Source: a virus. From it: a stretch of DNA of 64,000 nucleotides. Below, in pieces: positions 37,369 through 60,448 of this stretch. Numbering within the stretch: position 1 is the first letter of the stretch; each line of letters begins with the position of its first letter. The stretch covers positions 135,469-199,468 of the IMG/VR virus record IMGVR_UViG_3300049137_000157; one strand, 5' to 3'. The position numbers and the translations under genes are program-made. The notes below the pieces were generated by a model, which was given only the letters and a program-made list of their open reading frames with translations, was not told the origin of the DNA and ran no database searches.

Positions 37369-37584
37369 ATGCCGAAGTACGACCGCGACAAGGCCCGACT
37401 GGTGCACGAGGAGACGGGTGAGGAGATCATGCCGGGGAGCGTGGTGCCGGACTTCCGGGGCAACGACACTCGGTTCGACTTCATCTCGATCCTGCCGTCG
37501 CCCGGCAAGAGCGGCAAGATCATCTGCGGTGACCGGGAGTACTACCCCGGCGTCCTGAACGCCCGCATCGAGATCATGAACTAG
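37369..37584 (+). CDS. hypothetical protein
   Basis: RBS; REYYPGVLNARI. Confidence 0.7.
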   Translation: MPKYDRDKARLVHEETGEEIMPGSVVPDFRGNDTRFDFISILPSPGKSGKIICGDREYYPGVLNARIEIMN

Positions 37585-37624
37585 TAGCACTTCGCCCGTC
37601 AGCAGCAGACCGAGGGAGAAAATC

Positions 37625-37801
37625 ATGATGGACGCTGTCGACCAGAAGGTGCAGGTCATCCGGGACGGACAGGGGTGGTCGGACGAAACACTCGGAGCCC
37701 TGGCGATGAACTTCATCAGCGCCGACCCGGATCTGACCGAGCGGTTCATCGCGCGCCTGCGAGAGATCGCCGCCGAAGAGAACGAGTCCGCCGAGGGCTG
37801 A
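37625..37801 (+). CDS. hypothetical protein (not in ORF track)
   Basis: gagggag RBS, high GC3. Confidence 0.6.
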   Translation: MMDAVDQKVQVIRDGQGWSDETLGALAMNFISADPDLTERFIARLREIAAEENESAEG

Positions 37802-37825
37802 CGCATCCCGCACGGTGATCGAACG

Positions 37826-37860
37826 GGGCGGCCGGGAGCGAGGAGCCCGGCCGCCCTTTT
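37826..37860 (+). terminator. intrinsic terminator
   Basis: gggcggccggg...cccggccgccc-tttt. Confidence 0.7.
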
Positions 37861-37957
37861 GGATCCCTGATTCGGGAATTCCATCGCAGGTTTCTGCAAA
37901 GAGATCGCACCTGTCGGTTGTGAATGGCACAATGAGGGCTCGGAAAGGGAGAGGGAT

Positions 37958-38551
37958 ATGTGGATCAAGGACTTGCGGCCGATGTTCGGTCCGAGGGTGA
38001 CGGTGCAGACGGAGAACGGTGTCCGGTACGGCCTCGTGCGCGTCCGGTACGAGAACGGACACGTGAACGCCGGTCACTGTGAAGTCGAGTTCACGGACGG
38101 CGACCCGGCATTGATCCCCTTCGAGGCCATCACGCCGGGACCGAACGCCATCGACACCCCGACGGGAGTGACCTTCCCGGACATCCGGAAGGCGTACCGA
38201 CCCCTGTTCCTTGGGGACACTCGGCTGCGCCACGTGTCGGGGGTGAACCTCACCATCCCCGGCGACATGGAGGCGCTGCGGGAGCTGCGGGAGAAGCTGC
38301 GGGACGGCATACACCTGCACGTGACGGACCACGACTACGGGAACCGGAGCGGGGAGCGGGTGATCACGGGGATCAACGACGCCGGGATGTGGTCCACCCT
38401 GACTCCGCGCCGCAAGACGGCGGTGGAGAGCCATCTCATGTGGCCGGAGAACGACTTCATCGTGGACGGCAACACGCTCCACATCGAGAAGCCGTACCAC
38501 GCCTACACGGGCGGCCGGGCGAAGATCCTGACGCTCATGTTCCACGTCTGA
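37958..38551 (+). CDS. hypothetical protein
   Basis: cggaaagggagagg RBS. Confidence 0.75.
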   Translation: MWIKDLRPMFGPRVTVQTENGVRYGLVRVRYENGHVNAGHCEVEFTDGDPALIPFEAITPGPNAIDTPTGVTFPDIRKAYRPLFLGDTRLRHVSGVNLTIPGDMEALRELREKLRDGIHLHVTDHDYGNRSGERVITGINDAGMWSTLTPRRKTAVESHLMWPENDFIVDGNTLHIEKPYHAYTGGRAKILTLMFHV

Positions 38552-38569
38552 TCGGGAGGGAGAAGCAAC

Positions 38570-38983
38570 ATGTACAGGGTCGAGAAGAGAGACGGCAGTG
38601 AGACCGTCGAGTTCGGGACGGTGACCGAACTGGCCGAGTGGGCGATCCGGGAGCGCGTCTTCGATCACCGGACCGGCGGCGTGCCGTACCCGACCCGGCT
38701 GGAAGACGTGTACCTGGGGTCGCGCAACCACGACCCCGGGACGGACTACTACGTGATCGATCGCTTCGCGGGCTGGGAGGTCACTCCCGATCACCTGGCC
38801 GCACTGCGGACGGAGAAGGTGCGTCTTCAGGCGGAGGCCGAACAGGCGGAGATCAACGCCGGGTGGCGCACGGTGGAAGAGATCCCGTACATGGACAACT
38901 CCGTGGAGGCGATCCAGGAGGACAAGAACGGGAACCGGCGGCGCGTGACGGTGAAGCCGCCGAGCGGCGACGCCTGCTTCTGA
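38570..38983 (+). CDS. hypothetical protein
   Basis: RBS, codon bias. Confidence 0.7.
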   Translation: MYRVEKRDGSETVEFGTVTELAEWAIRERVFDHRTGGVPYPTRLEDVYLGSRNHDPGTDYYVIDRFAGWEVTPDHLAALRTEKVRLQAEAEQAEINAGWRTVEEIPYMDNSVEAIQEDKNGNRRRVTVKPPSGDACF

Positions 38984-38999
38984 CCACACGAACGGGAGG

Positions 39000-39293
39000 G
39001 TGAACATGTACGAGGAATCCGCACTGCGTGAGGCTCGGGCGCACCGGGACCACGGGTCCATCATCAGCGACGAGGCCGCTCGGTCGCTTGCCGACATGTG
39101 GCGGTCGAGCGCCCTGTCCGCATCGGTGAACCGACTGGCAACGGAGGGTGAGTGGTCCCTGGATCTCGCCTCCGACCTGAAGAGACTTCGGGACCGGGTC
39201 TTGACTGATGGCCGGAGCGCGGGAGAGGTCACGGAACTGTGCTCCGAGCTGGACGCCCTGATCGCCTGGGCAGAGCGTAGGAACAACGCCTGA
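39000..39293 (+). CDS. hypothetical protein
   Basis: RBS; ISDEAARSLADMW resembles part of 33067-33693. Confidence 0.65.
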   Translation: MNMYEESALREARAHRDHGSIISDEAARSLADMWRSSALSASVNRLATEGEWSLDLASDLKRLRDRVLTDGRSAGEVTELCSELDALIAWAERRNNA

Positions 39294-39358
39294 CCCGGCA
39301 CGCTTCGGGGGAGCACGGGACCGTCCCGTGCTCCTCCGTGGTTCATCGGGAGGGTGGA

Positions 39359-39487
39359 ATGGAAAGCCAGGAACGGACGCCGGGCCGGGTGCCGGAAGAG
39401 TACGCCCGGCAGTACTGGGAGTGGATGGATCGGGAGCTGGACGAGTGGGAGCCCGGTCCCGATCCACTCGACGACACGGAAATGTGA
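39359..39487 (+). CDS. 42-aa acidic peptide (not in ORF track)
   Basis: MESQERTPG..YWEWMDRELDEWEPG; GGGAGG RBS. Confidence 0.5.
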   Translation: MESQERTPGRVPEEYARQYWEWMDRELDEWEPGPDPLDDTEM

Positions 39488-39504
39488 TGGAGAGGGAGAA
39501 GAGG

Positions 39505-39888
39505 ATGGACGACAAGCCGACGCAGGACGTCTGGCGGGTGACGATCGTGCACATGACGAACGAGCGGGCGGGACATCATCAGAGGGGCTTTCTGGTCTGC
39601 CCGTACCCGATGACGGCATTCGAGGCCGTCGACCAGGGTGTACGTCGGGAGGTCGCCGAGATCGCCAAGATGGAGTCCTACCTCCCGAACGAGATCCACG
39701 TCACGGCGTGGCGATCTAGGAGCAAGGGCCGTCAGCGCGGTATCGAGCACGCGTGTGCGGCACTCGCCTCGCTCGACAAGGACACCGGCCAGTACCTGCG
39801 ACACGAACCCTGGGTGGCGGACAGCCACAGGGTGCCGGTCCTGGAGACCGTGAACGGGATCGATCTGCTCGACGTCGAGTGGACCTGA
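39505..39888 (+). CDS. hypothetical protein
   Basis: gagggagaagagg RBS. Confidence 0.65.
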   Translation: MDDKPTQDVWRVTIVHMTNERAGHHQRGFLVCPYPMTAFEAVDQGVRREVAEIAKMESYLPNEIHVTAWRSRSKGRQRGIEHACAALASLDKDTGQYLRHEPWVADSHRVPVLETVNGIDLLDVEWT

Positions 39889-39950
39889 CCCCGGCGACGT
39901 AGCGACATCCAGTACAAGAACGCGACGACCGGCGAGTGGGAGGGCATCTG

Positions 39951-40331
39951 ATGCCGTACGAGGTTCTGATCATCAACGACGGCAACACCGAGGACGCGCA
40001 CCCCGTGTGCGACGAGACGGTGTGCGCCGAAATCATCCTGAAGTGTCTCGGGGTTCCTGCCACCGTACTGGCCGAGGTCGATCCGACCGACCCCGGCACG
40101 CTGGACCTGGGAGACGACGTGTCCGTGGAGGTTGTTCTCCACGGGGAGCAGGACTCGTGTACGTGGTGCGTCTGCTGCGGCAAGTTCATCCAGCACGGCA
40201 TCCGGTACGAGGGCGAGGACGTCGGCTGTCGGCACGGCGAGGACGAGAAGCCGGATGACTTGGATCGTCCGTACATCGACTTCGAGGACAACCCGGTGAT
40301 GCGGGAGTACCTGTCCGGATCTCGGGACTGA
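39951..40331 (+). CDS. acidic protein with CxxCxxC
   Basis: Codon bias. Confidence 0.65.
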   Translation: MPYEVLIINDGNTEDAHPVCDETVCAEIILKCLGVPATVLAEVDPTDPGTLDLGDDVSVEVVLHGEQDSCTWCVCCGKFIQHGIRYEGEDVGCRHGEDEKPDDLDRPYIDFEDNPVMREYLSGSRD

Positions 40332-40366
40332 TCAACCGTACGAAAGATCGACGAGAGGGGAAGTAC

Positions 40367-40591
40367 ATGTCTGCTGCCGACGCGGTGGAGATGGGGGACC
40401 TGGACCTTGGCGTCCGAATGGTCGTCAAGACGTACGACATGAACAGCGGCACGACCGAGAACGCGTGGGACGTTCTCGTGGAGAGGGGGGCACACGGCGA
40501 TCTCGGAGTGGCGTTCGATCTCCTGGCGAACGCGGTCGGTGAGGGCAAGGCGCGGGAAATCCTGACGTCGATCGGCGTCGATATCCCCTGA
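40367..40591 (+). CDS. hypothetical protein
   Basis: RBS. Confidence 0.65.
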   Translation: MSAADAVEMGDLDLGVRMVVKTYDMNSGTTENAWDVLVERGAHGDLGVAFDLLANAVGEGKAREILTSIGVDIP

Positions 40592-40673
40592 CCGGGAGGT
40601 GCCCTAGGGTGGCTGGGCTTCGGCCCGGCCGCCCGGGAGTGCCGCCGGTCAGGCGGACGGAAAGGAGAAGGAA

Positions 40674-40919
40674 GTGGCGTTCAAGTTCAAGGTCACCCGT
40701 CTCGCCGACGGGACGACTAAGGAGATCGTCCGGGAGTCCGATCCGGCCGACGACAGGGACCGGCTGTTCACCGAGGTCTACCGCACTCTGCGGATGTTCA
40801 GTGCGTTCGTCAGTTCGTACACGGCGCACGACTATGCCCGACGGATCGTGGAGATCGAGCCGGGGACGGAGTCCGGGACCATCCTGCCGGGGTGGATCTT
40901 CCGGATCGATCAGGTCTGA
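40674..40919 (+). CDS. hypothetical protein
   Basis: acggaaaggagaagg RBS. Confidence 0.7.
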   Translation: MAFKFKVTRLADGTTKEIVRESDPADDRDRLFTEVYRTLRMFSAFVSSYTAHDYARRIVEIEPGTESGTILPGWIFRIDQV

Positions 40920-40946
40920 CGAGAGCAAGACGGAGAGGGGAAGACG

Positions 40947-41390
40947 ATGAGTTTCGTGCTTTCTGCGGTACGTCCGCCGGAGGGTGAGGCCCAGTACGGC
41001 AAGGCTCTGGTGCCCGAACAGGACCCCTTCACGGTGGTCGGATCGGCCATCCGGATGGTGGTGTGGGTGTTCGCGCAGCAGTCGGCCCCCGTCACGGTCG
41101 GGGAGGCCCGGGAGATCGGGCGGAACCTGATGGACGCCCCTGGTCGAGAGATCCGACACTCGGGGACCGGCTTCACGTTCCGACTGCACAAGGTGGGTAA
41201 GTACGGGGAGGTCCCGCACCCCTGTCCGTGCGATGACGACGGGAACACCTGTGGACGTCTGGTCCTGCCGACGGATCACGCCCTTGCCGCCGACGAGGAC
41301 GCCTACTGCCTCGGGTGCTACCCGTGGGACCGCAACATTCCGGCATGCCTGCCGAAGAGCACGGGACACGCCACCAACCCACTCGACTGA
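40947..41390 (+). CDS. two-domain protein; N-terminus paralogous to 40674-40919, Cys-rich C-terminus
   Basis: Shared A+E+GR.+...PG pattern; CPC..C..YCLGC. Confidence 0.65.
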   Translation: MSFVLSAVRPPEGEAQYGKALVPEQDPFTVVGSAIRMVVWVFAQQSAPVTVGEAREIGRNLMDAPGREIRHSGTGFTFRLHKVGKYGEVPHPCPCDDDGNTCGRLVLPTDHALAADEDAYCLGCYPWDRNIPACLPKSTGHATNPLD

Positions 41391-41428
41391 AGATCCCCGC
41401 CGATCGGCGGGGCGGAAAGGAGAAGGAC

Positions 41429-42037
41429 ATGAACGAGATCATCGAGACGACGGAGGACGGTCGCTACCGAGTGCGGCTGTTCCGTGACGAGGACGCCGGA
41501 CCCGCCAACCCCCGCACCCGGGACGACACCAACCTGGTCAACGTGATCACCCTGTCGGGGCAGGGCTACATCAACGTCGACGAGGACTTCGGCCCGCTCG
41601 CCGAGAGCTGGGAGCGGGTGAAGGACCACCCGAACGCGGTGGAGGTCTTCACGCGGTACGCCACGTCCGTTCACGGAGCCACGGTCATGTACGACCGACC
41701 GTACGACGGCGCGGATGCCATCTGGTACTTCATGCCGGAGAAGCTGTCCGAGGTTGGCCCGCACATCACCGCCGAGATGGTGATCAAGGACGAGATCGAG
41801 GAGTACCAGCGCTGGCGGGAAGATGAGATCTACGCCTACGTCGTCGAGGAGAACGTCCTCCGCGTGAAGGTGGACCGCAGCACCATGACCCCGATCCCGG
41901 GGTCCGGCGTCGAGCGGTGGGAGAAGGTGGACGAGGCCCAGGAGTGGGGGCTGCTCGGGTACGAGTCGGCTGCCGAGGAAGCCCGCCTGGCCCTGATCCC
42001 CTACGGCGGCAAGTTCAGCAGGAAGGCGGAAGCGTGA
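41429..42037 (+). CDS. acidic phage protein (DED..NPR...EEY..W..E+Y motif)
   Basis: ggaaaggagaagg RBS. Confidence 0.75.
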   Translation: MNEIIETTEDGRYRVRLFRDEDAGPANPRTRDDTNLVNVITLSGQGYINVDEDFGPLAESWERVKDHPNAVEVFTRYATSVHGATVMYDRPYDGADAIWYFMPEKLSEVGPHITAEMVIKDEIEEYQRWREDEIYAYVVEENVLRVKVDRSTMTPIPGSGVERWEKVDEAQEWGLLGYESAAEEARLALIPYGGKFSRKAEA

Positions 42038-42441
42038 TGACGGAGACGTTCCCGGAGTACGTGAGGGCCGACGAGAGTCGGATGATCGGCACCGTGGTCA
42101 GTGTGCGTCCCGGAGAGGGGTCCTTCGAGGTCGAGTGGGAGGACGGCCGGTTCTCCCGCGAGAGCCTGTCGGGTGCCGGTTCGGACTGGCTTCCCCTTCT
42201 CTCGCGCAAGACGGCGGAGGCGTGCCTGGCGGTCGTTCAGCAGTACATCGACCGGACCGAGGGCGAGGGTTGGGAGCCCAAGCTGTACCCGCCGGGCCAC
42301 GAGGGACCGTTCTGGGTGGTGTCTCTGGAATGCCAGTCGGACTGGGCGATCGACATCGGCAGCGCCGAGGGGATCACGTGGCCGGACGGAGTGTTCCCGG
42401 AGGCCGTCGCGTCGTGGTGCCTCGGTCTGCACGTCGCATGA
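42037..42441 (+). CDS. hypothetical protein
   Basis: TGATG overlap. Confidence 0.65.
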   Translation: MTETFPEYVRADESRMIGTVVSVRPGEGSFEVEWEDGRFSRESLSGAGSDWLPLLSRKTAEACLAVVQQYIDRTEGEGWEPKLYPPGHEGPFWVVSLECQSDWAIDIGSAEGITWPDGVFPEAVASWCLGLHVA

Positions 42442-42525
42442 TCGCGCCGTGAGCTTCGGGCGCGCACCGGATCCCGAGAGGGTCGGGTGCGCGTCCGTGT
42501 CCTACGGACGGAAGGGAGAAGAGAG

Positions 42526-42861
42526 ATGCACGAGACGAATCCGTGCGGGTGCGATGTCCTCAAGATCGGGGACTGGTTCACCGAGCTGGGATCGGAGTAC
42601 GTGGTCCTGGCGGTCCAGTACTACGAGGTGGCCGGAGGGGAGTCCCGGGGGTTCGTTCTGGGGTTCGCCCCGGACATCCACGAGTACCGGGTTTGGGAGA
42701 TCGACGAGAACGGCGTCCGGATCAGCCGGAGGCGGACGAACATCGAGGACAACGCGTTGAACGACTACGCCGTTCTCTCGGTGACCGCCCTGTACACGGC
42801 GAGGAACCGGATGGCTCCGAAGCTGACTTTCGGCCACGTCACCGACCGGGACGTGCTGTGA
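42526..42861 (+). CDS. hypothetical protein
   Basis: acggaagggagaaga RBS. Confidence 0.7.
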   Translation: MHETNPCGCDVLKIGDWFTELGSEYVVLAVQYYEVAGGESRGFVLGFAPDIHEYRVWEIDENGVRISRRRTNIEDNALNDYAVLSVTALYTARNRMAPKLTFGHVTDRDVL

Positions 42862-43139
42862 CTCGGTTCGACGACTTCCGGATTCAGCCGCCCGAGGAGT
42901 GGGGGCGGCTCGACATCGGGGAGGACGACTCGGAGGCGTACGCCGTATGGGTGGCGGCGGACGACGTGGAACAGGCCCGGACGGCGTATCTCTCGTACCG
43001 TGCGGCCGACGACGAGTACGCGATCCAGATGCTGCGGATGGGCTGCATGCGGGGCACTCTTCGGGAGGCCCGGAAGGCATCCGAGAACCGGCCGGGGACC
43101 CGGGTGTTCCGGGTCTGCAACGACCCTTCGAAGACGTGA
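42858..43139 (+). CDS. hypothetical protein
   Basis: GTGA overlap. Confidence 0.6.
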   Translation: MTRFDDFRIQPPEEWGRLDIGEDDSEAYAVWVAADDVEQARTAYLSYRAADDEYAIQMLRMGCMRGTLREARKASENRPGTRVFRVCNDPSKT

Positions 43140-43153
43140 GGAGAAACGGCGGC

Positions 43154-43321
43154 ATGGGTGACACGACCGACTACAGGGTCGCTCAGATCCGGGACCTCGG
43201 GAGCCTGGACGACGGCGGACGGATCAAGCTGATGACCGACACCGGCCAGACGCACTGGAACCGCATGTCGGCCGACAAGATGCGGCGCATCGCCGCCATC
43301 GTGGCCGAGCCCGAGGGCTGA
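43154..43321 (+). CDS. hypothetical protein
   Basis: GAGGAG RBS; IKLMTDTGQTHWNRM. Confidence 0.6.
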   Translation: MGDTTDYRVAQIRDLGSLDDGGRIKLMTDTGQTHWNRMSADKMRRIAAIVAEPEG

Positions 43322-43339
43322 CGAAAGGAGAAGAAAGCG

Positions 43340-43582
43340 ATGTTCGACCGCGAGGACATGATGGACATGCAGTACCGGGAGGAGAACCCCGGATACGAAC
43401 GGGAGGTCGGCCTGACGGCTTCGGATCTGGAGGACTGTGATCCCGAGATCGCACTTCTGGTGGCCGACAAGTACGCCCACGACAACAAGCGCCGTCGGGA
43501 CGGCAACCTGCGAACCGAGAACGACTTCCTGCGGGGACTCCTGGAGGAGAACGGCATCGAGATCCCGGAGGGGGAGCACTGA
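43340..43582 (+). CDS. acidic protein
   Basis: acgaaaggagaaga RBS. Confidence 0.7.
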   Translation: MFDREDMMDMQYREENPGYEREVGLTASDLEDCDPEIALLVADKYAHDNKRRRDGNLRTENDFLRGLLEENGIEIPEGEH

Positions 43583-43815
43583 TGGGTCGGACGATCCACC
43601 TGAAGCCCGGGGAGCGGCTGCGCGTTGTGACGCCCGGCGGCGCGGTCGACATCGAAGATTTGCCGAGCGTGCACGAGAGCGGACAGGACATCGTCCGCGT
43701 GGACGTGATCACCGACCGGAACCCGGTCACCCCGATGAACCGGGGCAAGAGCTGGGAGCTGATCGAGGACGACCCGACGGGTGTTGTTCGCATCCTCAGC
43801 AAGCCGACCGACTGA
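43582..43815 (+). CDS. hypothetical protein
   Basis: TGATG overlap. Confidence 0.65.
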   Translation: MGRTIHLKPGERLRVVTPGGAVDIEDLPSVHESGQDIVRVDVITDRNPVTPMNRGKSWELIEDDPTGVVRILSKPTD

Positions 43816-43832
43816 CTGACGGAGGGGACCTC

Positions 43833-44213
43833 ATGCTGCACATGGCCACGTTCACGGGAGTGGAACCCGCTCGGGCGACGTTCCTGGCGGTGTTGGACAC
43901 CAACGCCGAGGATCACCGGGGACGGATCATGGGACGGATCTTGTTCTTCGACCTGCGCTACCCGGATCACGTCGGGAAGTACCCGCACGTCAGCGTCCCG
44001 TTCGACGTGGCGGGGCAGTTCGTCACGGAGGCTCAGCCCGGTTCGATCCACGAGAGCGGATACAAGCTCTACGCGCCGGGAGGTCGGTTGATCCTCTGGG
44101 GGACGGACGAGAGCTGGGCGATACCGGCCAGCGAACACCACCGCTTGTCGGAGTGGGTGGCGGAGTCCTACAGCCGGGAGGGGCGTCTGGTCCCCGAGGT
44201 CGACGACTTCTGA
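43833..44213 (+). CDS. conserved phage protein (F+DxRY...GQFV motif)
   Basis: ILFFDLRYP...GQFVT...LILWG...W. Confidence 0.65.
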   Translation: MLHMATFTGVEPARATFLAVLDTNAEDHRGRIMGRILFFDLRYPDHVGKYPHVSVPFDVAGQFVTEAQPGSIHESGYKLYAPGGRLILWGTDESWAIPASEHHRLSEWVAESYSREGRLVPEVDDF

Positions 44214-44277
44214 CGCTCAGACGGTTCGGGAGTAGGGCAGGGGAGCCATTCCCCTGCCCTTTCCAGTGTCGGTTGAG

Positions 44278-44293
44278 TATGATGGCCTAGGTC
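44278..44293 (+). promoter_or_regulatory. TATGAT -10 box abutting GGCCTAGGTC
   Basis: tatgat-ggcctaggtc. Confidence 0.6.
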
Positions 44294-44456
44294 ACCCGGG
44301 AGGTGGATGGGGATGCGACTGCACGAGGCTCCCGCATGGGTGCGCCGTCTACGAGAGCGACCAGATCTACCTCCCGTCGGAGATCTCCCGGCCGTACGGG
44401 TGGGCCATCATCCGCAAGATCGACACACAGCAGAGCTGAACGGACAGGAGAAGGAC

Positions 44457-44840
44457 ATGATCGAAAACAGTCCGGTGATCGTCACCGAGGACCAGCTCCG
44501 AGAGATCGGGCAGGCAGCCCAGTGGTTCACCAACGGACGGTTCAAGCTGGTTGTCGGGGCGGGATACAGCCCTGACGGCCGGTACATGAACCTCGGTGAG
44601 GGTTCCCCGGCCCTGGCGTGGAACGACCCGGCCGAGGCCGCCGCCTACCTCCTGGGAGCCATGCTCGGAACGGCCTACACGACGGGCGACCTGATCCCTC
44701 AGGAGATCGTGGAGAGCCTGCGTCCGGTCCTCACCGAGCTGGGTATGGCGGGCGGGGAGTCCTCTCCCACCGGCAAGATCATCCCGGCGCGAATTCGGGA
44801 GCTGGAAGCGCTCGGCCGGTGGGACGCCGGTCAGCGCTGA
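44457..44840 (+). CDS. hypothetical protein
   Basis: caggagaagg RBS before ATG 44457. Confidence 0.7.
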   Translation: MIENSPVIVTEDQLREIGQAAQWFTNGRFKLVVGAGYSPDGRYMNLGEGSPALAWNDPAEAAAYLLGAMLGTAYTTGDLIPQEIVESLRPVLTELGMAGGESSPTGKIIPARIRELEALGRWDAGQR

Positions 44841-44874
44841 CCGACCACTCGACAGGAAGAGGGGAGGGAAGAAC

Positions 44875-45246
44875 ATGACGTGGCGTGACAAGGTCCCGGA
44901 GAAGGAACTGCCCCACTGGGAGGCAAGGTGGCAGGACCATCTCGCCCGGGTGCGTCAGGCGTTTCGGAACGGCACCGTCTACGACTACTTCACCTGGGGT
45001 GAGCTGACCCCGGAGGACCGTCGACTCCTGGTCGGCATGGACGCAACCTCGGCCCATTGGGCGGAGACCTCCGAAGGAAACCTCCGGCTGATGCCGTGGG
45101 GCCTGCCCCTGCATGCGAGCTACTGCGACAGCGATTTCCGAAAGGTCGTCTCGGTCGAGAGGGATGTCGTCAGGTACGCCAACGGGATGACCTGGGAGTT
45201 CCGCCCGAACAGCAAGATCGCGGTTCGGTTCACTGTTCAGAAGTGA
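44875..45246 (+). CDS. hypothetical protein
   Basis: RBS. Confidence 0.7.
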   Translation: MTWRDKVPEKELPHWEARWQDHLARVRQAFRNGTVYDYFTWGELTPEDRRLLVGMDATSAHWAETSEGNLRLMPWGLPLHASYCDSDFRKVVSVERDVVRYANGMTWEFRPNSKIAVRFTVQK

Positions 45247-45329
45247 CCTCGCCCCATGCGCTTCGGGCGCGCATCCCAGTTCGGGGTGTGCGTCCGTGCC
45301 GTATCGGACGGGAGAAGGAGAAACCAGCA

Positions 45330-45659
45330 GTGGCTACGTTCGACTACCTGAAGCCTGGCGAGGCCGTGAGACGGGCCTCCCCTCACGCTCGGGACTGGGA
45401 GAACATCGTCGGCTTGAAGGCGGCGGACGCCGGGCTGTTCCTGAAGGACAGGACTCGGGCCGGGTACCTGCGTGAGCCGTCGGATCCGTGGCGGGCTCAC
45501 GCCTACGTGGAACGGTTCTTCCGCGAGATCCAGTCGGTGCAGTGGGCGAAGGACGCCGACCCCGGGGTGGCGGAGGTGTTCTTCACGGACGGGGAGTCGA
45601 CACTCCTGCACAAGTGGGACCTGCTGTGCGTCGAACGACCGATCGATGGAATCAACTGA
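45330..45659 (+). CDS. hypothetical protein
   Basis: gggagaaggag RBS. Confidence 0.65.
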   Translation: MATFDYLKPGEAVRRASPHARDWENIVGLKAADAGLFLKDRTRAGYLREPSDPWRAHAYVERFFREIQSVQWAKDADPGVAEVFFTDGESTLLHKWDLLCVERPIDGIN

Positions 45660-45697
45660 CCGTCGTACCCAGCAGTAGACATGAAGGGGAAGAGAGC

Positions 45698-45883
45698 ATG
45701 GACCTGACCATCGCCAAGGAAGACCTGTCCGACTGGATGGGGCGAAAGGTGACCGACGCCGAGGTGGAGTATCTGGCGGAAACCATCGGGTACTCCAGCG
45801 TTCCGGAGGCCATCGCCACCATCCTGGACGGCATGCCCAGCCACCGCCAGGTCGACGGCAGCGAAGAGGAGGATGGCGAGTGA
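45698..45883 (+). CDS. small acidic protein
   Basis: RBS. Confidence 0.6.
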   Translation: MDLTIAKEDLSDWMGRKVTDAEVEYLAETIGYSSVPEAIATILDGMPSHRQVDGSEEEDGE

Positions 45884-46149
45884 ATAGCGCCCTGGAGGTC
45901 AGCGACGCCGGACGGTACCGCTACAGCTCGACCTACCCGGACTTCCCGGCCATGTTCGAGGGTGAGGAAGTAGGCGTGATCCTGGAGGTCGAAGGAGGCT
46001 TCCGGGCCTACATCCGGCCCGCCGTTCCGGGAGGCGCGCCCTGGTGGGGGCCGGAGAAGGTGTTCCAGTCGACGGCGATCGACGACCTGGAGACGGAGCT
46101 GATGAACCGGGGTGTGATCCCCGTGCGCACCCTCGGGGGGAGGAGCTGA
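45880..46149 (+). CDS. hypothetical protein
   Basis: GTGA overlap. Confidence 0.65.
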   Translation: MNSALEVSDAGRYRYSSTYPDFPAMFEGEEVGVILEVEGGFRAYIRPAVPGGAPWWGPEKVFQSTAIDDLETELMNRGVIPVRTLGGRS

Positions 46150-46319
46150 TGTTGGCGGTGGAAGTGGAGCGCTGCTCCCGGTGCCGACAGCCCTTCGAGA
46201 CGGGAGAGCGCCGCTACGCCGACCCTTGCTGCGGGGCTCCGGACTGCGACGGTCTGATGAACGAGTCGCACTTCCGATGCCTGTCCCGAGTCGACCAGGA
46301 GATCCACCGGGAGTACTGA
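46149..46319 (+). CDS. small zinc-binding protein
   Basis: CSRC...CC..DC...HxxC; TGATG overlap. Confidence 0.6.
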   Translation: MLAVEVERCSRCRQPFETGERRYADPCCGAPDCDGLMNESHFRCLSRVDQEIHREY

Positions 46320-46413
46320 CCCCGTGGCGTTCGGGGGCGTCCGGCTTCGGCCGGGCGTCTCAGTGCCCTACGGGTGAAAGGAAAAGAACACGACCTGAGG
46401 AAAGGAAGCGGTC

Positions 46414-46674
46414 ATGGGTGAAGCGCCGTACGGGATGCCCGCTGCGCAGCGTGGCGGAATCCGCGAACGGGCCAGTGCGGGGGTCATCGGCAAGGTGGAG
46501 GTCACGCCCTGCGGACTCATCGTCCTGCCTCTCGGACGCCTGACGGATCCGGGAGACGGTACGGTCTGGGAACCGACCGGCCGGATCGCTCTCGTACCCA
46601 GCGAGTGGAAGGCTCTGGTCGCCGAGATCGAAGCCAAGAAGGCCGACTTGGGCAGCCCGAACCGGTCGGACTGA
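46414..46674 (+). CDS. hypothetical protein
   Basis: ggaaagg RBS. Confidence 0.6.
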   Translation: MGEAPYGMPAAQRGGIRERASAGVIGKVEVTPCGLIVLPLGRLTDPGDGTVWEPTGRIALVPSEWKALVAEIEAKKADLGSPNRSD

Positions 46675-46698
46675 TCTTGCTGAACGGAAAGGAGAGAA

Positions 46699-47094
46699 GT
46701 GGACAAGCTGGGTGGCTTGATCCGGAGGGACGGGATCGAGGTACAGGCGATCGAGGTACCTCCTCGGAATGGCCGACGCTTTCTGGTCGCACTCCTCAAG
46801 GACGATCGGAAAGGGGCGAACCGCCTCTCGGTTCTCGGCCCTTACGAGGCCCCGGAACCTCCGGACGCTTTCGAGGTGTTGTCGTACCTCTTCCTTGTCG
46901 TCACCGCTTCCGTGGAACGCACCGATTCCTACGAGACGTGGGTGAGCGACGTGTCGGCACCCACGGATCGCAAGCCGTGGGAGAAGTACCCGAAGAGGCT
47001 GTACACGCAGTGGGTAGCGACGGCCGACCGACTGCGCGATTTCCTCGGAGACCGGTACGACGAGTACCGGAACTCCGACCTGGACAAGAGCTGA
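46699..47094 (+). CDS. hypothetical protein
   Basis: acggaaaggagagaa RBS. Confidence 0.7.
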   Translation: MDKLGGLIRRDGIEVQAIEVPPRNGRRFLVALLKDDRKGANRLSVLGPYEAPEPPDAFEVLSYLFLVVTASVERTDSYETWVSDVSAPTDRKPWEKYPKRLYTQWVATADRLRDFLGDRYDEYRNSDLDKS

Positions 47095-47108
47095 GAAGGA
47101 GAAGAAGC

Positions 47109-47309
47109 GTGATCACAACGATCCTCAACACCGCCCGCCAGGAAGATCTGGAGCAGGCTCGGGTCTTCGTGTCCAACCACCTGCACCTCCCCCTGGAGGA
47201 CGTCTCCCGGAAGGTGGCGGTGGCGTACATCTGCAAGCACTTCCGTCAGGGTTCCTACGAGTACTGGGAGGGCTGGGAGGCGATGCTCGCCGCCGACCGC
47301 CGGAACTGA
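47109..47309 (+). CDS. hypothetical protein
   Basis: aaggagaaga RBS. Confidence 0.6.
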   Translation: MITTILNTARQEDLEQARVFVSNHLHLPLEDVSRKVAVAYICKHFRQGSYEYWEGWEAMLAADRRN

Positions 47310-47345
47310 CGCCGGTGTGCTGGTTGCCACACATCTGTAAGCGGC

Positions 47346-47374
47346 TGGACGGCAACGGCCTAGGCCGATAAAGT
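47346..47374 (+). promoter_or_regulatory. sigmaA/HrdB-like promoter with CGGCCTAGGCCG in the spacer
   Basis: TGGACG-17 bp-TAAAGT. Confidence 0.55.
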
Positions 47375-47445
47375 CGGGAGGGTTTCCGGGGGTTGTTCCC
47401 GGCACCCTCCCGACGTCGTATCGGGATCGGAAGGAGAAGAAAAGG

Positions 47446-47877
47446 ATGCTCAGCGAAGATCTTGCCGTCTGGATCCAGGAGGAACCCGCTCTCCTGGAGC
47501 GTGTTCGTCAGTTCATCGAGCAGGACAAGCGGGACAGGAGTTTCATCCTCGGCCCTTGGCTGACGGACGCCCTGTTCGGCATCGGGACTTCGTATCGGGA
47601 ATCCGACCCGGTGCGGGAGGCCCTTCAGCGGGGACGGGACCGCCTTCTCGGCACTTACACGCGAGACGACTTCCAAGGTCTCTTGCTGGACGAGTGGCAC
47701 GAGATCGCTCGCAGCCTGGAGCGTCCCGTCTGTCAGTGCGAGCACCAGCGGCACTTCGAAGGCGGGCTGCACGCCTACCTCAGCGAACATGTACTGGCGG
47801 GTGACCGACGGGCACAGCACGTCGGCCCGATCTGCGACCCGTGCGCCGAGAAGTGCATGAAGGACTACCTGATCTAA
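47446..47877 (+). CDS. helical protein with C-terminal Cys/His domain; paralog family with 47887, 50141, 55899
   Basis: LAVWIQEEP...EWHEIARSL; CQC.H..H...CDPC. Confidence 0.7.
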   Translation: MLSEDLAVWIQEEPALLERVRQFIEQDKRDRSFILGPWLTDALFGIGTSYRESDPVREALQRGRDRLLGTYTRDDFQGLLLDEWHEIARSLERPVCQCEHQRHFEGGLHAYLSEHVLAGDRRAQHVGPICDPCAEKCMKDYLI

Positions 47878-47886
47878 GGAGACGGC

Positions 47887-48207
47887 GTGACAACGGCAAC
47901 CGAAGAGATTCTGGACTGGGTTCGGAACGACCATCCGGTCTGCGATCACCTGGCGCGTGCGGCGGAGAAGAGCAACGGGCCGGAGCGGGTGCAGTGGTAC
48001 ATCACCGAGCTGCTGTACGGGAGCAGCGGGCCGGTGCTGTACCGACGGCGGCATCAGGTCTTCGTCGGCAGCCTGGCAGGCTTCGAGGAGCACCTGCCGG
48101 GTCTGGTGCGTGACCGTCTCGAAGAGATCGGCGCGAGCCTGTCCGAAGTCGACTGGGAGACCGTCGCCCGGGAGGCCCGAACGGTGATCAACGGGGAGGG
48201 TTCATGA
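47887..48207 (+). CDS. helical acidic protein (W..ND...VDW..VA family)
   Basis: ILDWVRND...SEVDWETVAR. Confidence 0.7.
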   Translation: MTTATEEILDWVRNDHPVCDHLARAAEKSNGPERVQWYITELLYGSSGPVLYRRRHQVFVGSLAGFEEHLPGLVRDRLEEIGASLSEVDWETVAREARTVINGEGS

Positions 48208-48539
48208 CCGCACACAACATCGTCGGCGACGACGGAACCATGATCGTCCACCCGCGAACCAAGGAGCACGCACACCGGGGGAACGGATACGCCTGGTGCT
48301 GGCCCTGCGGAGCCTGGGAGGACATCCCGTCCTGGTGGTTCGAGACAGAGGTCGGTCTTCGCCGGGTCATCCAGGCCGCTTACGAGGGCTTCGGCGGACG
48401 CCTCATCGACATTCCGGCTGAGATCTGGCTGGCGATCACCCTCGCGTACACCCGATTCCGCCAGTGGCGGGACTTCGATACTCGGCTCGACTTCTGGCGA
48501 GCCTTCCAAGAAGAACAGCCCCTTCGGGAGAAGACGTGA
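48204..48539 (+). CDS. hypothetical protein
   Basis: ATGA overlap. Confidence 0.65.
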   Translation: MTAHNIVGDDGTMIVHPRTKEHAHRGNGYAWCWPCGAWEDIPSWWFETEVGLRRVIQAAYEGFGGRLIDIPAEIWLAITLAYTRFRQWRDFDTRLDFWRAFQEEQPLREKT

Positions 48540-48823
48540 GTCAGCCGAACCGCTTCAAGGCCACCCCGGAAGAGATCATGGACTTTCTCCGGGAACACTT
48601 CGCGGAGGACCAGCTCGAACCCTTCCAGTGGGCGATCGTCCAGAACGGCCTGCGTGAAGGGGTCGCCGAGATTCGCAACGAGCTGAACCGAGGCGGCTAC
48701 CACACGCTCCTGAAGCAGTGGCACGACGGCTTCCACTACGCCGTCAACATGCTCGACCCGGACGACAAGGAGTACCGGGGCCACTGGCCGTCCAACCTGC
48801 TCGGCCAGACGAAGAAGAAGTAA
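48536..48823 (+). CDS. hypothetical protein
   Basis: GTGA overlap. Confidence 0.65.
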   Translation: MSQPNRFKATPEEIMDFLREHFAEDQLEPFQWAIVQNGLREGVAEIRNELNRGGYHTLLKQWHDGFHYAVNMLDPDDKEYRGHWPSNLLGQTKKK

Positions 48824-48841
48824 CGGAGAGGGAGAAGAAAA

Positions 48842-49165
48842 GTGGATCGCGTTCAGATCACCCGAGGCACCTTCGAGTCGGCCGCCTACGAGTCCGACAT
48901 CGACATCGACGACGACATCCGCTGGGAGGCCGCCGGATCCTTCCGGGGGATGTCCCGGCCGGACTACCAGTACCCCGCGATCATCGTCGAGGGCGTCGGC
49001 ACCTTGGCCTCCTTCGCCGCTAACCTCGCCCTCACCCTGGTCCGGGACCCGCGCCCCGGCGACCCCAGCCCGAGCGTCGTCCCGCGCATCGTGTCCTCCT
49101 ACCGCTCCGACAGCATGGGTCACGACGCGATCTACGGTTTCCCTCTGATCGACATCATCGACTGA
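48842..49165 (+). CDS. acidic hypothetical protein
   Basis: RBS; YRSDSMG...YGFP. Confidence 0.7.
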   Translation: MDRVQITRGTFESAAYESDIDIDDDIRWEAAGSFRGMSRPDYQYPAIIVEGVGTLASFAANLALTLVRDPRPGDPSPSVVPRIVSSYRSDSMGHDAIYGFPLIDIID

Positions 49166-49251
49166 CGGCCCGCCCGGCTTCGGGAGCGGCCCCGGACCCA
49201 CGCCGGGGCCGTTCCAGTGGCCTGACGAACCGAAATTCCCGCACCGAGGAG

Positions 49252-49722
49252 ATGAAGATGAAGCTGACGATCGACCTGGCCCGGAAGGTCCTGACAGGAC
49301 TGGAGGAGAAGCGCTACAAGGTCCACGCCGACGACGAGGAGTTCGCCGACGGCAACCCGGACCTCCAGGACTGGGTGGACACCATCGGCGGAGTCATGGA
49401 CAGCAAGAGTTACGACTCCAACGCAGTCCTCGCCGTGGCCATGTACACCGAGAGCTACGGGGACGACGTCCTCGCCCACGAGTTCGAGGAGTACGTGGAG
49501 AACCGGTACACCGAGTGCTACGGCGACAGCAAGGGTCAGGCCGTCCGGAACTACGCCCAGAACGACGAGTTCGGACTCGGGAGGCTGTACCGGCGACTGG
49601 AGGCGGAGGAAGCCCTCCGCATCTTCCCGTGGGACTGGTACGTGGAGGACAACCCGTCCAACCTCGCCGACATGAGCTTCATCGAGGTCGACGACACCTA
49701 CTACCTGTTCCGGGACCACTGA
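49252..49722 (+). CDS. ArdA-like acidic antirestriction protein
   Basis: Very acidic; FEEYVENRY..DS....IFPWDWY...DMSFIEVDDTYYLFRD resembles ArdA C-terminal domains. Confidence 0.65.
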   Translation: MKMKLTIDLARKVLTGLEEKRYKVHADDEEFADGNPDLQDWVDTIGGVMDSKSYDSNAVLAVAMYTESYGDDVLAHEFEEYVENRYTECYGDSKGQAVRNYAQNDEFGLGRLYRRLEAEEALRIFPWDWYVEDNPSNLADMSFIEVDDTYYLFRDH

Positions 49723-49769
49723 CGGATCCCGGGACTCGCTGAGAACCGAAACGGAGAGGGGAAGAGAGC

Positions 49770-50120
49770 ATGACCGAGCGCTTCTGGGACGAGATGGCCC
49801 CGTACGAGGGACCGAACGGCTACGCCCGCTGCACAGGGGAGGAGGTGGTGGGGTCGATCACGCAGTCGATCGAGTTCAAGCTGGAGACGTCGCTCATGCT
49901 CTCCCGGGTGGGCGTGAGGGAGATGACGGACGGCCGCCGGTACATCCTGGCGATCCGCAAGGCGGGCCACGTCCCCAGTCACGGCCACGCTCGCGTGGCC
50001 ATCCTGCACAGGGGCCACATGACCTTCAAGGAGTTGGCCGAGGACGTCTACCGGCGGGAGAGGGGGTTCATGGACCCCGGCCTGGCCAAGTTCTACCGGC
50101 AGCAGATCGACGCGCTCTGA
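49770..50120 (+). CDS. hypothetical protein
   Basis: acggagagggg RBS. Confidence 0.7.
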   Translation: MTERFWDEMAPYEGPNGYARCTGEEVVGSITQSIEFKLETSLMLSRVGVREMTDGRRYILAIRKAGHVPSHGHARVAILHRGHMTFKELAEDVYRRERGFMDPGLAKFYRQQIDAL

Positions 50121-50140
50121 CACGGAAGGGAGAGGAAACG

Positions 50141-50473
50141 ATGGGTGAGGACTTCGAGAGCTTCGAAGGCCACGAGGGCTACGAGTGGGCGACTGAGGCC
50201 GTCTACGAGTGGGTGGTCAGCGACCGTGTTCTACGGGGTGCGCTACTGGACGTGATCCACCTGCACGCGGGATCCAACTGCGCCTTCTGGATGGCGGAGT
50301 TCCTGTTCCGCGCCCGAGCGGGAGAGGTTCCGTTCGTGAACCAGGGCAACCTCCGGAAGCGCATGCGGGGAGATCTCGGGTCGGCTTCGATGCCGAACTT
50401 CGAGCACGTCAACTTCAAGGAGATCGCCACTCGGCTTCTCGTCGAGACGACTCCGGCAGGGGAGGAGAACTGA
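50141..50473 (+). CDS. helical protein, paralog of 47887
   Basis: ATEAVYEWVVSD...HVNFKEIAT. Confidence 0.7.
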   Translation: MGEDFESFEGHEGYEWATEAVYEWVVSDRVLRGALLDVIHLHAGSNCAFWMAEFLFRARAGEVPFVNQGNLRKRMRGDLGSASMPNFEHVNFKEIATRLLVETTPAGEEN

Positions 50474-50949
50474 TGGATATCGAGATCTGGCGGGACCGGA
50501 ACGGCAACCCGCTGAAGTTCCAGTGGGGCGACCACGTCCGGCGCAACGACCAGGAGGAGGACATCTTCACCCGGGGCTTCATCACCTCCTACACGGAGGC
50601 CGACGACGGCAGCATCTTCTACAGCTTCAACCGGGACAACGTCTACCACCGGAGGGTCGCGGAGAACCTGCTGGAGCTGTCGCCTGAGCGCCGAGTCCAG
50701 TACTCGGCTGTCGGCTACACGAAGGACGGCAACTACGTCAACGTCCCGATGTGGGGCGACTGGATGGACATCCGGTCCGAAGGCCACGAGACGATCGAGG
50801 CTGCCACGGAGGCGGCGTCGAAGCTCTTCGGTCAGGACGAGCGGGTGGCTGTGGTGGAGATCCGGGAGAGCGTCCAGGACATCCCCGGTCGACCCTGGCG
50901 AATCGGCCGTTCGGTGGCGACGGTCAACCGATCGGACGTCAACGCCTGA
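50473..50949 (+). CDS. SH3/KOW-like domain protein
   Basis: KFQWGDHVR..G.I..Y; TGATG overlap. Confidence 0.65.
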   Translation: MDIEIWRDRNGNPLKFQWGDHVRRNDQEEDIFTRGFITSYTEADDGSIFYSFNRDNVYHRRVAENLLELSPERRVQYSAVGYTKDGNYVNVPMWGDWMDIRSEGHETIEAATEAASKLFGQDERVAVVEIRESVQDIPGRPWRIGRSVATVNRSDVNA

Positions 50950-51036
50950 CGGGTGAGACACCCCAGGGTGGTCGAGCTTCGGTCCGACCACCCGAGAGTG
51001 CCGACCCGGGCACGAAATAGAAAGGTAGAACTCCAT

Positions 51037-58172: not shown

Positions 58173-58481
58173 ATGTCCGAGCTGACTCGAAAGACCACGC
58201 ACTACATCGTCCACCACACGGTCGCGGACCCTGGTCCGAACTCCACCTACGGCACGTCGGCCCCGTACTCCGGGGAGCGTGCCCTGGAGCGAGCGATCAA
58301 GGCGGCCCACGTCGAGATCTCATCCCGTCGTCGGGCCTTCGTCACCGCCCGCGACAAGAACTCGGCCATCCTTGCCGTCATCCCGGTCGTTGACTACCCG
58401 GTGGCTCAAGAGACCCACGTTCCCCTGCACGCGCAGGACGCCATCACCGGCCTCTTCGAGGCCATGGACTGGACGGTCTGA
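58173..58481 (+). CDS. hypothetical protein
   Basis: gagggag RBS. Confidence 0.7.
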   Translation: MSELTRKTTHYIVHHTVADPGPNSTYGTSAPYSGERALERAIKAAHVEISSRRRAFVTARDKNSAILAVIPVVDYPVAQETHVPLHAQDAITGLFEAMDWTV

Positions 58482-58491
58482 CACCCACGAA

Positions 58492-58553
58492 CCGGCACGG
58501 CCGAAACCCCTTCGGGGGTCGGCGGTATGGGGCCGCCCTGATGAGTCCGTCGG
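58492..58553 (+). ncRNA. type II hammerhead ribozyme
   Basis: GAAA 58503-06, stem III CCCC-UUCG-GGGG, GUC cut after 58520, stem I GGCGGU/GCCGCC, CUGAUGA 58538-44, imperfect stem II. Confidence 0.8.
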
Positions 58554-58568
58554 AGAAGGAGAGAAAAC

Positions 58569-59057
58569 GTGAAGAAGATCAAGGTTCGCCCGATGACGGG
58601 CGAGGAACTGCTGAGCCTCGGCGAGAGCGACTGGACCTACGTTCCGGATCACGGTCGCCGGGACGCCCTCGTGCCCGCCCGACTGCACCAAGGACTCCTT
58701 CCCGGCGAGGTGAAGGCCCTGGAGAAGTACATCGCCGACGGCGCGATCGTTCCTTCGTTCGGCATCCTCACTCTGTACGGCTCCCTGTACTCGGCACGGG
58801 CGACGGAGTTCTTCGTCGAGGATCCGGAGGGCGAGGAGCGCCCGGTGATCGAGACGGTCGGCACGCAGGTGTCCATGGCGATCTACGTCCCGGGCATGGA
58901 GGGGCCTGACGTGCTGGAGCGGATGCGCAAGGCGCTGCGGGCCGAGTTCGGCGCGGGTCTGCTCCAGCTCCGCCAGGAGACACACCGGCCGGTGCCGGAG
59001 ACGGGACTTCCTCCGGTGCTCGGTGTACCGAACGGGCACATGCCGGAACTCATCTGA
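58569..59057 (+). CDS. hypothetical protein
   Basis: aaggagag RBS; flanked by the two ribozymes. Confidence 0.7.
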   Translation: MKKIKVRPMTGEELLSLGESDWTYVPDHGRRDALVPARLHQGLLPGEVKALEKYIADGAIVPSFGILTLYGSLYSARATEFFVEDPEGEERPVIETVGTQVSMAIYVPGMEGPDVLERMRKALRAEFGAGLLQLRQETHRPVPETGLPPVLGVPNGHMPELI

Positions 59058-59058
59058 C

Positions 59059-59123
59059 CTGACCCGAGGCCGAAACCCCTTCGGGGGTCGCAGCGTGAGG
59101 CGCTGCCTGACGATGGCCGTCAG
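59059..59123 (+). ncRNA. type II hammerhead ribozyme
   Basis: CUGAC-(CCGA bulge)-GGCC-GAAA, CCCC-UUCG-GGGG, GUC cut after 59089, stem I GCAGCG/CGCUGC, CUGACGA-U-GGCC-GUCAG. Confidence 0.88.
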
Positions 59124-59143
59124 TAAACGGAAAGGAGACAGGG

Positions 59144-59389: not shown

Positions 59390-59697
59390 ACGGGCAGGAG
59401 TCGATCCAGAACGAGGCCGAAACCGCGAGTGGCTATCTGAATAGCGTGCTCCGCTATATGCAGAACGGGGGCAAGCTGACCAGTATCGAAGCCACTGCCG
59501 CCGAAACGCTGCGCCTGCACGCCGAAGAACTGGGACACGGCCTGGAGAGCCCCGTGAATGCCAGTGTGGGGGCGTCGATACTTCGTGCCGCCGTAGAACA
59601 CCTCCGTCTTCGCCACAACAACCTGGCCGCCGATGAGGTCTTCCGTGACCTGATGGACATGGCCACCAAGCTCGGACAGGAAGGTCGTAGCAAGTGA
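59386..59697 (+). CDS. hypothetical protein
   Basis: ATGA overlap. Confidence 0.6.
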   Translation: MNGQESIQNEAETASGYLNSVLRYMQNGGKLTSIEATAAETLRLHAEELGHGLESPVNASVGASILRAAVEHLRLRHNNLAADEVFRDLMDMATKLGQEGRSK

Positions 59698-60179
59698 CGG
59701 CGAACGAACAGATGCAGTTGATGGAGAACCTCCTCGCCGGGTTGTACACCGGCATGTACGAGGCCATGGCCCCTCGGGAGCGTTGGGCCGAGGGCGACGA
59801 GGGCCTTCAGTGGACGGTGAACGAGGTTGCCCGGCTCGCAGGTGCCTTCGGTCATGACGACCTGCTGGCAGTCGCGAAGCACCTGAAGGGGACTTCGTCA
59901 TCCGTGACGATCAACTCCCTGGAGACCTGGCTGGAGGCCCACTACTTCGGCGCTCACGCGACCTCCGGGGAGGCCCTGAAGGACTTCGCCAAGCGCATGC
60001 CGGACACCGCGATCGGTTCGCTGTACGCCGAGATGGACGAGATGGGGGAGGCCGAGGACTTCGAGTGGGAGACGATGGCCAAGTCGCCCATCCCGAAGGC
60101 GATCGGCCTCTACTTCGTCACCCTCGACAACGAGACCGACGACGTCTTCCTGTTCTGGGACAAGCAGCGGGCCTCGTGA
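59694..60179 (+). CDS. ArdA-like acidic protein, paralog of 49252
   Basis: WLEAHYFG..SGEALKDFA...LYAEMD...FEWE...VFLFWD aligns with 49252 C-terminus. Confidence 0.55.
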   Translation: MTANEQMQLMENLLAGLYTGMYEAMAPRERWAEGDEGLQWTVNEVARLAGAFGHDDLLAVAKHLKGTSSSVTINSLETWLEAHYFGAHATSGEALKDFAKRMPDTAIGSLYAEMDEMGEAEDFEWETMAKSPIPKAIGLYFVTLDNETDDVFLFWDKQRAS

Positions 60180-60448
60180 ACAGACACATCCCGTTCCGTG
60201 AGGGTCGAAAGCTCCGCATAGACGGTGTCACCTGGTACTGCCAGTCTCCGGGGTCCCTCTGGGAGACCCGGCCGGAAGATGACCAGGAGTGTGGCTTCCA
60301 GCTCTTCTGGACGGACGGTCCGGCCTGGTGGCTGATCTGGCCCGAGGGCGGCGAGAGCCGCATGTCCGAGATCGGCCTCAAGATGGCCATGAAGACGGCT
60401 GCTCCGTACGTGCGCGGAGAACTTGGTCCGGGGGAGTTCCCGGACTGA
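60176..60448 (+). CDS. hypothetical protein
   Basis: GTGA overlap. Confidence 0.6.
   Translation: MNRHIPFREGRKLRIDGVTWYCQSPGSLWETRPEDDQECGFQLFWTDGPAWWLIWPEGGESRMSEIGLKMAMKTAAPYVRGELGPGEFPD

Follow-up and report, generated by a model that had tools for sequence, protein, structure and literature searches.

Type II hammerhead ribozymes that flank genes in phages have been known since 2011, when Perreault et al. proposed a processing role for those that flank single prophage genes (PMC3088659). For type II hammerheads in prophage-like contexts, cleavage in vivo has been demonstrated in Desulfovibrio vulgaris (PMC8782182). The motif, its phage context and the gene-flanking arrangement are thus already published, and the two ribozymes described here, which we call HH1 and HH2, resemble the published family (RF02276; PMC3088659) in their catalytic core, in the circular permutation that leaves stem II open, and in an intergenic phage context in which several copies flank single genes. 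They differ from it in apparently lacking the pseudoknot between loop I and the 3' tail that is the hallmark of the Rfam RF02276 consensus; the subclass of HH2 has a GGCC/GGCC stem II, usually an extra U after A9, and a pairing between tail and core. Within this subclass (GGCC...CUGANGA-U-GGCC; at least 119 IMG/VR contigs, as well as Burkholderia phages) HH2 is a typical member. HH1 shares its 5' half and core-tail hairpin with the subclass, but lacks the extra U, carries GUCC rather than GGCC on the 3' side (one mismatch), has a longer and bulged stem II, and has C in place of A before GGCC.

Two further systems bear comparison. RiboJ is an engineered insulator that places a hammerhead and then a hairpin before the ribosome-binding site, so that the upstream context is removed and the ribosome-binding site exposed. 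The predicted 3' products of HH1 and HH2 have the same layout; unlike RiboJ, the two ribozymes are natural, of type II and known from sequence, and their second hairpin would be built from the ribozyme's own core. With the hammerheads of viroids, satellites and retrozymes they share a paired arrangement of cuts that would give a unit-length RNA with ligatable ends. Here, however, the setting is that of DNA phage genes, with neither a rolling-circle template nor a unit repeat, no ligase is encoded, and the two ribozymes differ in ancestry.

The window, that is, the whole stretch of 64,000 nucleotides analysed, is the last 64 kb of a complete virus record of 199,468 bp with direct terminal repeats, whose closest named relatives are the Streptomyces phages JustBecause, Kela, Frankenweenie and Quantum (184-200 kb). 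Beyond about 55 kb, the plausible genes of the window all lie on the + strand and are small and tightly spaced, and scans of the window gave no promoter-like site in 54-64 kb and no terminator-like site around 58-59 kb, a picture consistent with long polycistronic transcripts. A terminator reading of the HH1 region itself was rejected, since stem III lacks a trailing U-run and the scan gave no terminator. Both ribozymes are placed between small phage genes, in the spacer that separates a stop codon from the next ribosome-binding site (Table 1).

Table 1. Features of the HH1-HH2 locus, in window coordinates.
Feature	Position	Strand	Basis or remark
Upstream gene, 102 aa	58173-58481	+	TGA stop 58479-58481 within CUGAC 58478-58482
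Probable decayed 5' half of ancestral HH1	58483-58496	+	three-way alignment, ~12/16 matching positions, one gap
HH1, type II hammerhead	58492-58553	+	core, descriptor, R1 model
HH1 stem II, 3' strand	58492-58502	+	
HH1 GAAA	58503-58506	+	
HH1 stem III, CCCC/UUCG/GGGG	58506-58519	+	closing pair A58506-U58519
HH1 predicted cut	between C58520 and G58521	+	C17 = C58520
HH1 stem I	58521-58537	+	6 bp including one G.U pair
HH1 core CUGAUGA	58538-58544	+	
HH1 alternative hairpin, core CUGAUG with tail CGUCGG	58538-58553	+	6 bp (two G.U); MFE folds
HH1 stem II, 5' strand	58545-58553	+	
Flanked gene, 162 aa	58569-59057	+	GTG start behind GGAG-rich ribosome-binding site
HH2, type II hammerhead	59059-59123	+	73.9 bits with R1
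HH2 distal CUGAC	59059-59063	+	
HH2 GGCC, 5' side	59068-59071	+	followed by GAAA and stem III
HH2 predicted cut	between C59089 and G59090	+	
HH2 stem I	59090-59106	+	
HH2 core CUGACGA	59107-59113	+	followed by the extra U
HH2 GGCC, 3' side	59115-59118	+	
HH2 GUCAG	59119-59123	+	
Downstream gene, 81 aa	59144-59389	+	ORF list

Judged by its sequence and predicted fold, the 62-base element HH1 of this 199-kb Streptomyces phage is a genuine type II hammerhead that is predicted to cleave itself. Stems I and III are closed and stem II is open, the topology that defines type II. Every position of the hammerhead core is as expected (C3 U4 G5 A6 N7 G8 A9, G12 A13 A14, A15.1-U16.1, H17), and each of the three helices has a Watson-Crick pair beside the core. 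Stem III consists of a 4-bp CCCC/GGGG helix and the A58506-U58519 pair, 5 bp in all, and stem II runs from G58545-C58502 through a U58546.C58501 mismatch and four pairs to a 2-nt bulge and CGG/CCG. The same core is found in HH2, where N7 is C. All of the HH1 elements named by the first-pass annotation lie where it had put them, the C-U mismatch of stem II included, and a single gene does lie between HH1 and the copy at 59059. The block of 22 nt that it described as common to the two copies occurs exactly twice in the window (58499-58520 and 59068-59089) and in 0 of 100 shuffles; the identity in fact extends over 23 nt.

Two features of HH1 are less favourable. The position 5' of its GGCC strand is C, where the family has a nearly invariant A, and inspection of loop I revealed no evident tertiary partner, so that HH1 may cut slowly or fail to cut. 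By eye, we found no consistent pairing of loop I with the tail in these elements, the partner of the tail being the core. One Burkholderia copy would allow loop I to form 5 bp with the bulge of stem II, a candidate contact that we dropped because it fails in the window and in Quantum. HH2 has both the near-invariant A before GGCC and an invariant U that opens loop I, and these two might form a tertiary contact.

Statistical support for both elements comes from a family model built independently of the window. A pattern scan of IMG/VR for the layout GGCC-GAAA ... CUGANGA-U-GGCC, which gave the viral contigs counted above, yielded 114 distinct elements among the matches listed; 60 of the listed elements were aligned (alignment A2), and a covariance model (R1) was built on A2 and the hammerhead structure, with no window sequence in its seed. 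On the 64-kb window R1 scored the HH2 copy (59062-59126) at 73.9 bits (E 2e-19) and HH1 at 30.7 bits (E ~8e-7), a difference of 43 bits, these E-values being rough because calibration was short. Over the whole 199,468-bp genome the model gave no convincing copy beyond these two. A descriptor comprising the core and at least 5 bp in stems I and III likewise found two sites in the 199-kb genome, HH1 and HH2, and none in 40 dinucleotide shuffles. Across the 60 sequences of A2, changes on both sides of a pair were seen at five of the six stem III pairs and at all six stem I pairs; pairing holds in 93% of cells, a figure that drops to 71% on shuffling and to 27-45% on sliding the partners. The positions without variation coincide exactly with the catalytic ones. 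The stems of HH1 itself are uninformative on covariation because they do not vary among its three orthologues. At the gathering threshold Rfam called neither ribozyme in a scan of the whole window; in a 1-kb scan RF02276 (Hammerhead_II) gave HH1 22.7 bits (E 0.061) against a cut-off of 37, and HH2 was absent from its list at E<=10.

The placement of HH1 and HH2 is that of their family. In most listed members the stop codon of the preceding ORF lies 0-6 nt from the first stem II strand or overlaps it, and roughly 20 viral contigs among the matches listed carry same-strand hammerhead neighbours about 240-1600 nt apart, which makes the 569-nt spacing of HH1 and HH2 an ordinary one. Relatives have two to three such elements apiece at varying locations, and the R4-like phage Paedore (MH001460.1) has between 9 (model) and 13 (descriptor) hammerheads among its early genes.

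The Paedore elements (L008, record 42,000-51,000, minus strand) sit between almost every pair of early genes and are unannotated in the record; they are of the classical type II kind, their GCCAGCC tail being compatible with the loop I pseudoknot known from the literature. Similar BLAST matches within unannotated spacers came from many R4-like Streptomyces phages. BLAST matches in Mycobacterium phages were set aside, being 23 nt long with an E of 6 and located within integrase genes. Two weaker R1 matches in the window were rejected as active hammerheads, as the core is broken in both: one at 15349-15403 (17.3 bits; GGAA, CUGUGGA) and one at 60197-60292 on the + strand (17.6 bits, E ~0.005; CGGAAGA). 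The latter takes up the whole interval from the stop of gene 59694-60179 to the following ribosome-binding site and has GAAA and GUC with imperfect stems; it may represent a third ribozyme, now decayed, in a slot of this kind. Another conserved element, distinct from the hammerheads, occupies that stop-to-ribosome-binding-site slot in eleven intergenic spacers of the early region (window 31203-49270, +). It consists of TTCGGG or TTCCGG, a variable hairpin of 12-16 bp and (A)GTG, after which there is usually a second, small hairpin and then the ribosome-binding site, and it could be another RNA-processing signal.

HH2 has close relatives well beyond the Streptomyces phages. Its stem I, core and stem II (window 59086-59125) share 95-97% identity over 37-40 nt with intergenic elements of the Burkholderia phages BcepB1A, BcepF1 and Bups phi1 (L001-L003); the stem III of those copies is longer than, and completely unlike, that of HH2. 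The BcepB1A copy falls within the annotated CDS gp71 ('pyrophosphatase' in RefSeq), whose annotated start is probably mis-called. In the window, the CUGAC that holds the stop codon of the 162-aa gene is tandemly doubled (CUGAC CUGAC, 59054-59063), and two metagenome contigs with homologues of this gene (L132 and L133) have a single CUGAC followed by CACAA and GGCC.

The history of HH1 is more composite. JustBecause gp295 and Frankenweenie gp323 are orthologues of the gene upstream of it (75-78% identity), and each is followed by a type II hammerhead whose CUGAC overlaps the TGA stop. In a three-way alignment the 3' half of HH1 matches the JustBecause and Frankenweenie element in stem I (GGCGG/CCGCC), core, GUCC and tail. 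The 5' half differs: GGAY-GAAA and a stem III of 25 nt occur in the relatives, and the window has the 22-23-nt block that is identical to HH2. Next to it, the segment listed in Table 1 as a decayed half resembles the former stem II strand, GAAA (shortened to GAA) and the beginning of the former stem III. From this alignment we infer that HH1 was rebuilt, its 5' half having been overwritten by a short conversion tract from HH2 while the old half decays. Convergence is a possible alternative origin of the 5' half, which we retain because the same string (GAAA, CCCC-UUCG-GGGG, UC) is found again in four Paedore hammerheads. The difference in stem I between HH1 and HH2, which had been read as compensatory change under selection on structure, does not bear that interpretation: the two 3' halves differ in ancestry and are not orthologues. 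The covariation that speaks for the structure is that of A2.

A feature that HH1 shares with its subclass is a second, mutually exclusive fold. Among the 113 listed family members with a readable tail, 51 have xUCAG as the five bases after stem II, and in all 51 the base x is the Watson-Crick complement of N7 (C:G in 40, U:A in 10 and G:C in 1), N7 being the sole free position of the hammerhead core. The members L081 and L089, whose stem III is identical and whose stem I is nearly so, differ in precisely the double change at N7 and x. Together with G8 and the last C of GGCC, the xUCAG tail gives a 6-bp hairpin that buries C3-G8 and so excludes the active fold. Among the matches listed, CUGAN also occurs 3-7 nt upstream of GGCC in 27 of the 51 elements with an xUCAG tail as against 12 of the 63 without one, and the TGA of this CUGAN closes a long open frame in 22 of the 27. 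The core-tail hairpin of HH2 is perfectly paired; in that of HH1 two transitions away from the orthologues, of C7 to U and of a tail A to G, leave all six pairs in place, two of them as G.U. By nearest-neighbour energies the active fold of HH2 is at -29.6 kcal/mol with the distal CUGAC/GUCAG extension and at -24.8 without it, the alternative being at -26.5; in HH1 the two folds are about equal (active -25.2, alternative -25.6 kcal/mol). The isolated 3' products fold as stem I followed by the core-tail hairpin with the ribosome-binding site unpaired, a state that makes up 92% and 43% of the two ensembles.

We propose, tentatively and at slightly less than even confidence, that the subclass carries a three-way switch. 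The xUCAG tail would pair either with the upstream CUGAC, usually the one containing the stop codon, thereby extending stem II and favouring the active fold, or with CUGAN of the catalytic core, giving the inactive hairpin, so that cleavage would be limited co-transcriptionally. In the literature searched we found no description of the covarying core-tail hairpin or of the stop-codon overlap, and both may be new observations on this subclass.

The position of the single mismatch in HH1 raises the question whether this ribozyme still works. The U.C mismatch falls precisely where imported GGCC is set against ancestral GUCC, and in Frankenweenie stem II (GGAC/GUCC) is paired throughout; the patch might therefore have crippled HH1, leaving the mismatch and costing it the distal A, so that HH2 alone cleaves and the 162-aa gene remains joined to the upstream cistrons. 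The low R1 score of HH1 relative to HH2 and an alternative fold as stable as the active one are in keeping with such a relic, as is the sub-threshold Rfam score, and the two broken-core sites show that decay occurs in this genome. Yet all the catalytic nucleotides of HH1 are intact and its 10.1-11.1 pair, beside the core, is G-C; orthologues persist in two phages. The screening of Perreault et al. 2011 rejects core-adjacent or multiple mispairs, of which HH1 has neither (PMC3088659), and single stem II mismatches are seen in natural relatives as well, for example in the copy on contig L133. Furthermore, the retention of core-tail pairing through the two transitions suggests continued selection. 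Weighing these points, we consider a crippled HH1 unlikely and expect that HH1 probably does cleave.

Searches of Pfam and PHROGs gave no family for the 162-aa protein or its five neighbours, the 102-aa and 81-aa proteins included, and tblastn of the 162-aa protein against 50,697 phage records gave no match; its nine homologues (46-58% identity) are all on metagenome contigs. The C-terminal 60 residues are highly conserved, and the N-terminal part is confidently modelled as a small beta-rich domain (AlphaFold; mean pLDDT 74). A Foldseek search of the PDB with this model gave no match at E<=0.001, just weak rows of SH3/Tudor-like barrels on which we do not rely. Across five contigs with homologues of the gene, a hammerhead starts at its stop codon in two and lies one small gene further downstream in one; two have none nearby, which indicates that the ribozyme is dispensable for the gene, and none of the five has a hammerhead upstream. 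The neighbours of the gene differ in all six contexts, none being common to the window and the others, and neither the 162-aa gene nor the 81-aa gene has a counterpart after the hammerhead in JustBecause or Frankenweenie. These comparisons tie each ribozyme to the gene that precedes it and whose stop codon it overlaps, HH1 being inherited with the 58173 gene and HH2 with the 162-aa gene. What looks like a bracket round the 162-aa gene is thus two consecutive modules, each of a gene and its 3' ribozyme.

On one of the metagenome contigs, the place that corresponds to HH1, upstream of the 162-aa homologue, is taken by a plain long hairpin closed by CUGACCG/CGGUCAG (L135:2415-2480). Its flanking words are those of a hammerhead distal stem II, and the ribozyme core is absent.

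An alternative would be a role mainly at the level of DNA, in which the elements serve as short shared boundaries that promote recombination and the exchange of modules between phages, ribozyme activity being secondary. The different genes that follow HH1 in the window and in JustBecause and Frankenweenie, the changing neighbours of the 162-aa gene, the 22-23-nt tract apparently copied between the HH1 and HH2 sites and the near-identical 38-40-nt segment shared with the Burkholderia phages could all be read in this way. Nevertheless, the stems covary with pairing kept and the invariant positions are the catalytic ones, which points to selection on RNA rather than on DNA identity, and some 20-40 nt of identity is short for homologous recombination. 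We therefore hold a primarily DNA-level role to be highly improbable; the two roles are mutually compatible.

The best explanation of the locus, and in our judgement a likely one, is that HH1 and HH2 cut a long transcript into single-gene messages, serving mRNA processing and insulation. From family membership, each ribozyme would be expected to fold and cut itself during transcription at the site given in Table 1. In the type II layout stem II alone joins the two products, which would thus separate easily, and the upstream mRNA would be left with the stem III hairpin and a 2',3'-cyclic phosphate at its end. The downstream mRNA would carry a 5'-OH and have the stem I hairpin as its first structure, and the freed core would refold with the tail into a second hairpin directly ahead of the unpaired ribosome-binding site. 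This second hairpin would prevent re-ligation and supply a defined, protected 5' leader, the net effect being to uncouple adjacent cistrons in stability and translation. The 162-aa gene would accordingly be expressed from a monocistronic RNA of 569 nt (58521-59089), and the 81-aa gene would come first on the RNA downstream of the HH2 cut.

That two cuts would release this 569-nt RNA agrees with the first-pass annotation; its further reading, of an excision unit or circle, is not supported. If both ribozymes cut, hammerhead chemistry would leave the unit with a 5'-OH and a 2',3'-cyclic phosphate. Such ends are substrates of RtcB, and one could envisage that the unit is circularised, by a host RtcB or by hammerhead-catalysed ligation, into a circle that is translatable or regulatory. 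The phage genome, however, has no RtcB, in a search whose control was positive in 10 of 14 reference genomes, and the product ends have no complementarity that would bring them together. HH1 and HH2 belong to separate gene modules with different histories, so they were not inherited as a pair round a cargo, and the RtcB circularisation suggested earlier finds no support. Perreault et al. 2011, who raised the possibility of circles for such arrangements, looked for circular and spliced RNAs arising from tandem hammerheads in prophages and saw neither (PMC3088659). We regard a circular product as very improbable; processing into monocistronic mRNAs is the simpler and most likely reading.

In the literature searched we found no mention of hammerheads in actinobacteriophages. 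Hammerheads of large Streptomyces phages and a big metagenome subclass both fall below the Rfam threshold and are therefore overlooked by phage annotations. Should the switch exist, cleavage would be confined to a short co-transcriptional window, and a ribosome terminating on the upstream gene could gate it; refolding in a 'cleave-and-lock' manner would make cleavage irreversible and at the same time provide the following mRNA with its 5' leader. A connection between cleavage, translation and the design of mRNA 5' ends is suggested by the core-tail hairpin together with the stop-codon overlap. With two unequal ribozymes on either side of one small gene, in a phage family that can be cultured, this locus offers a test case for the function of bacterial hammerheads.
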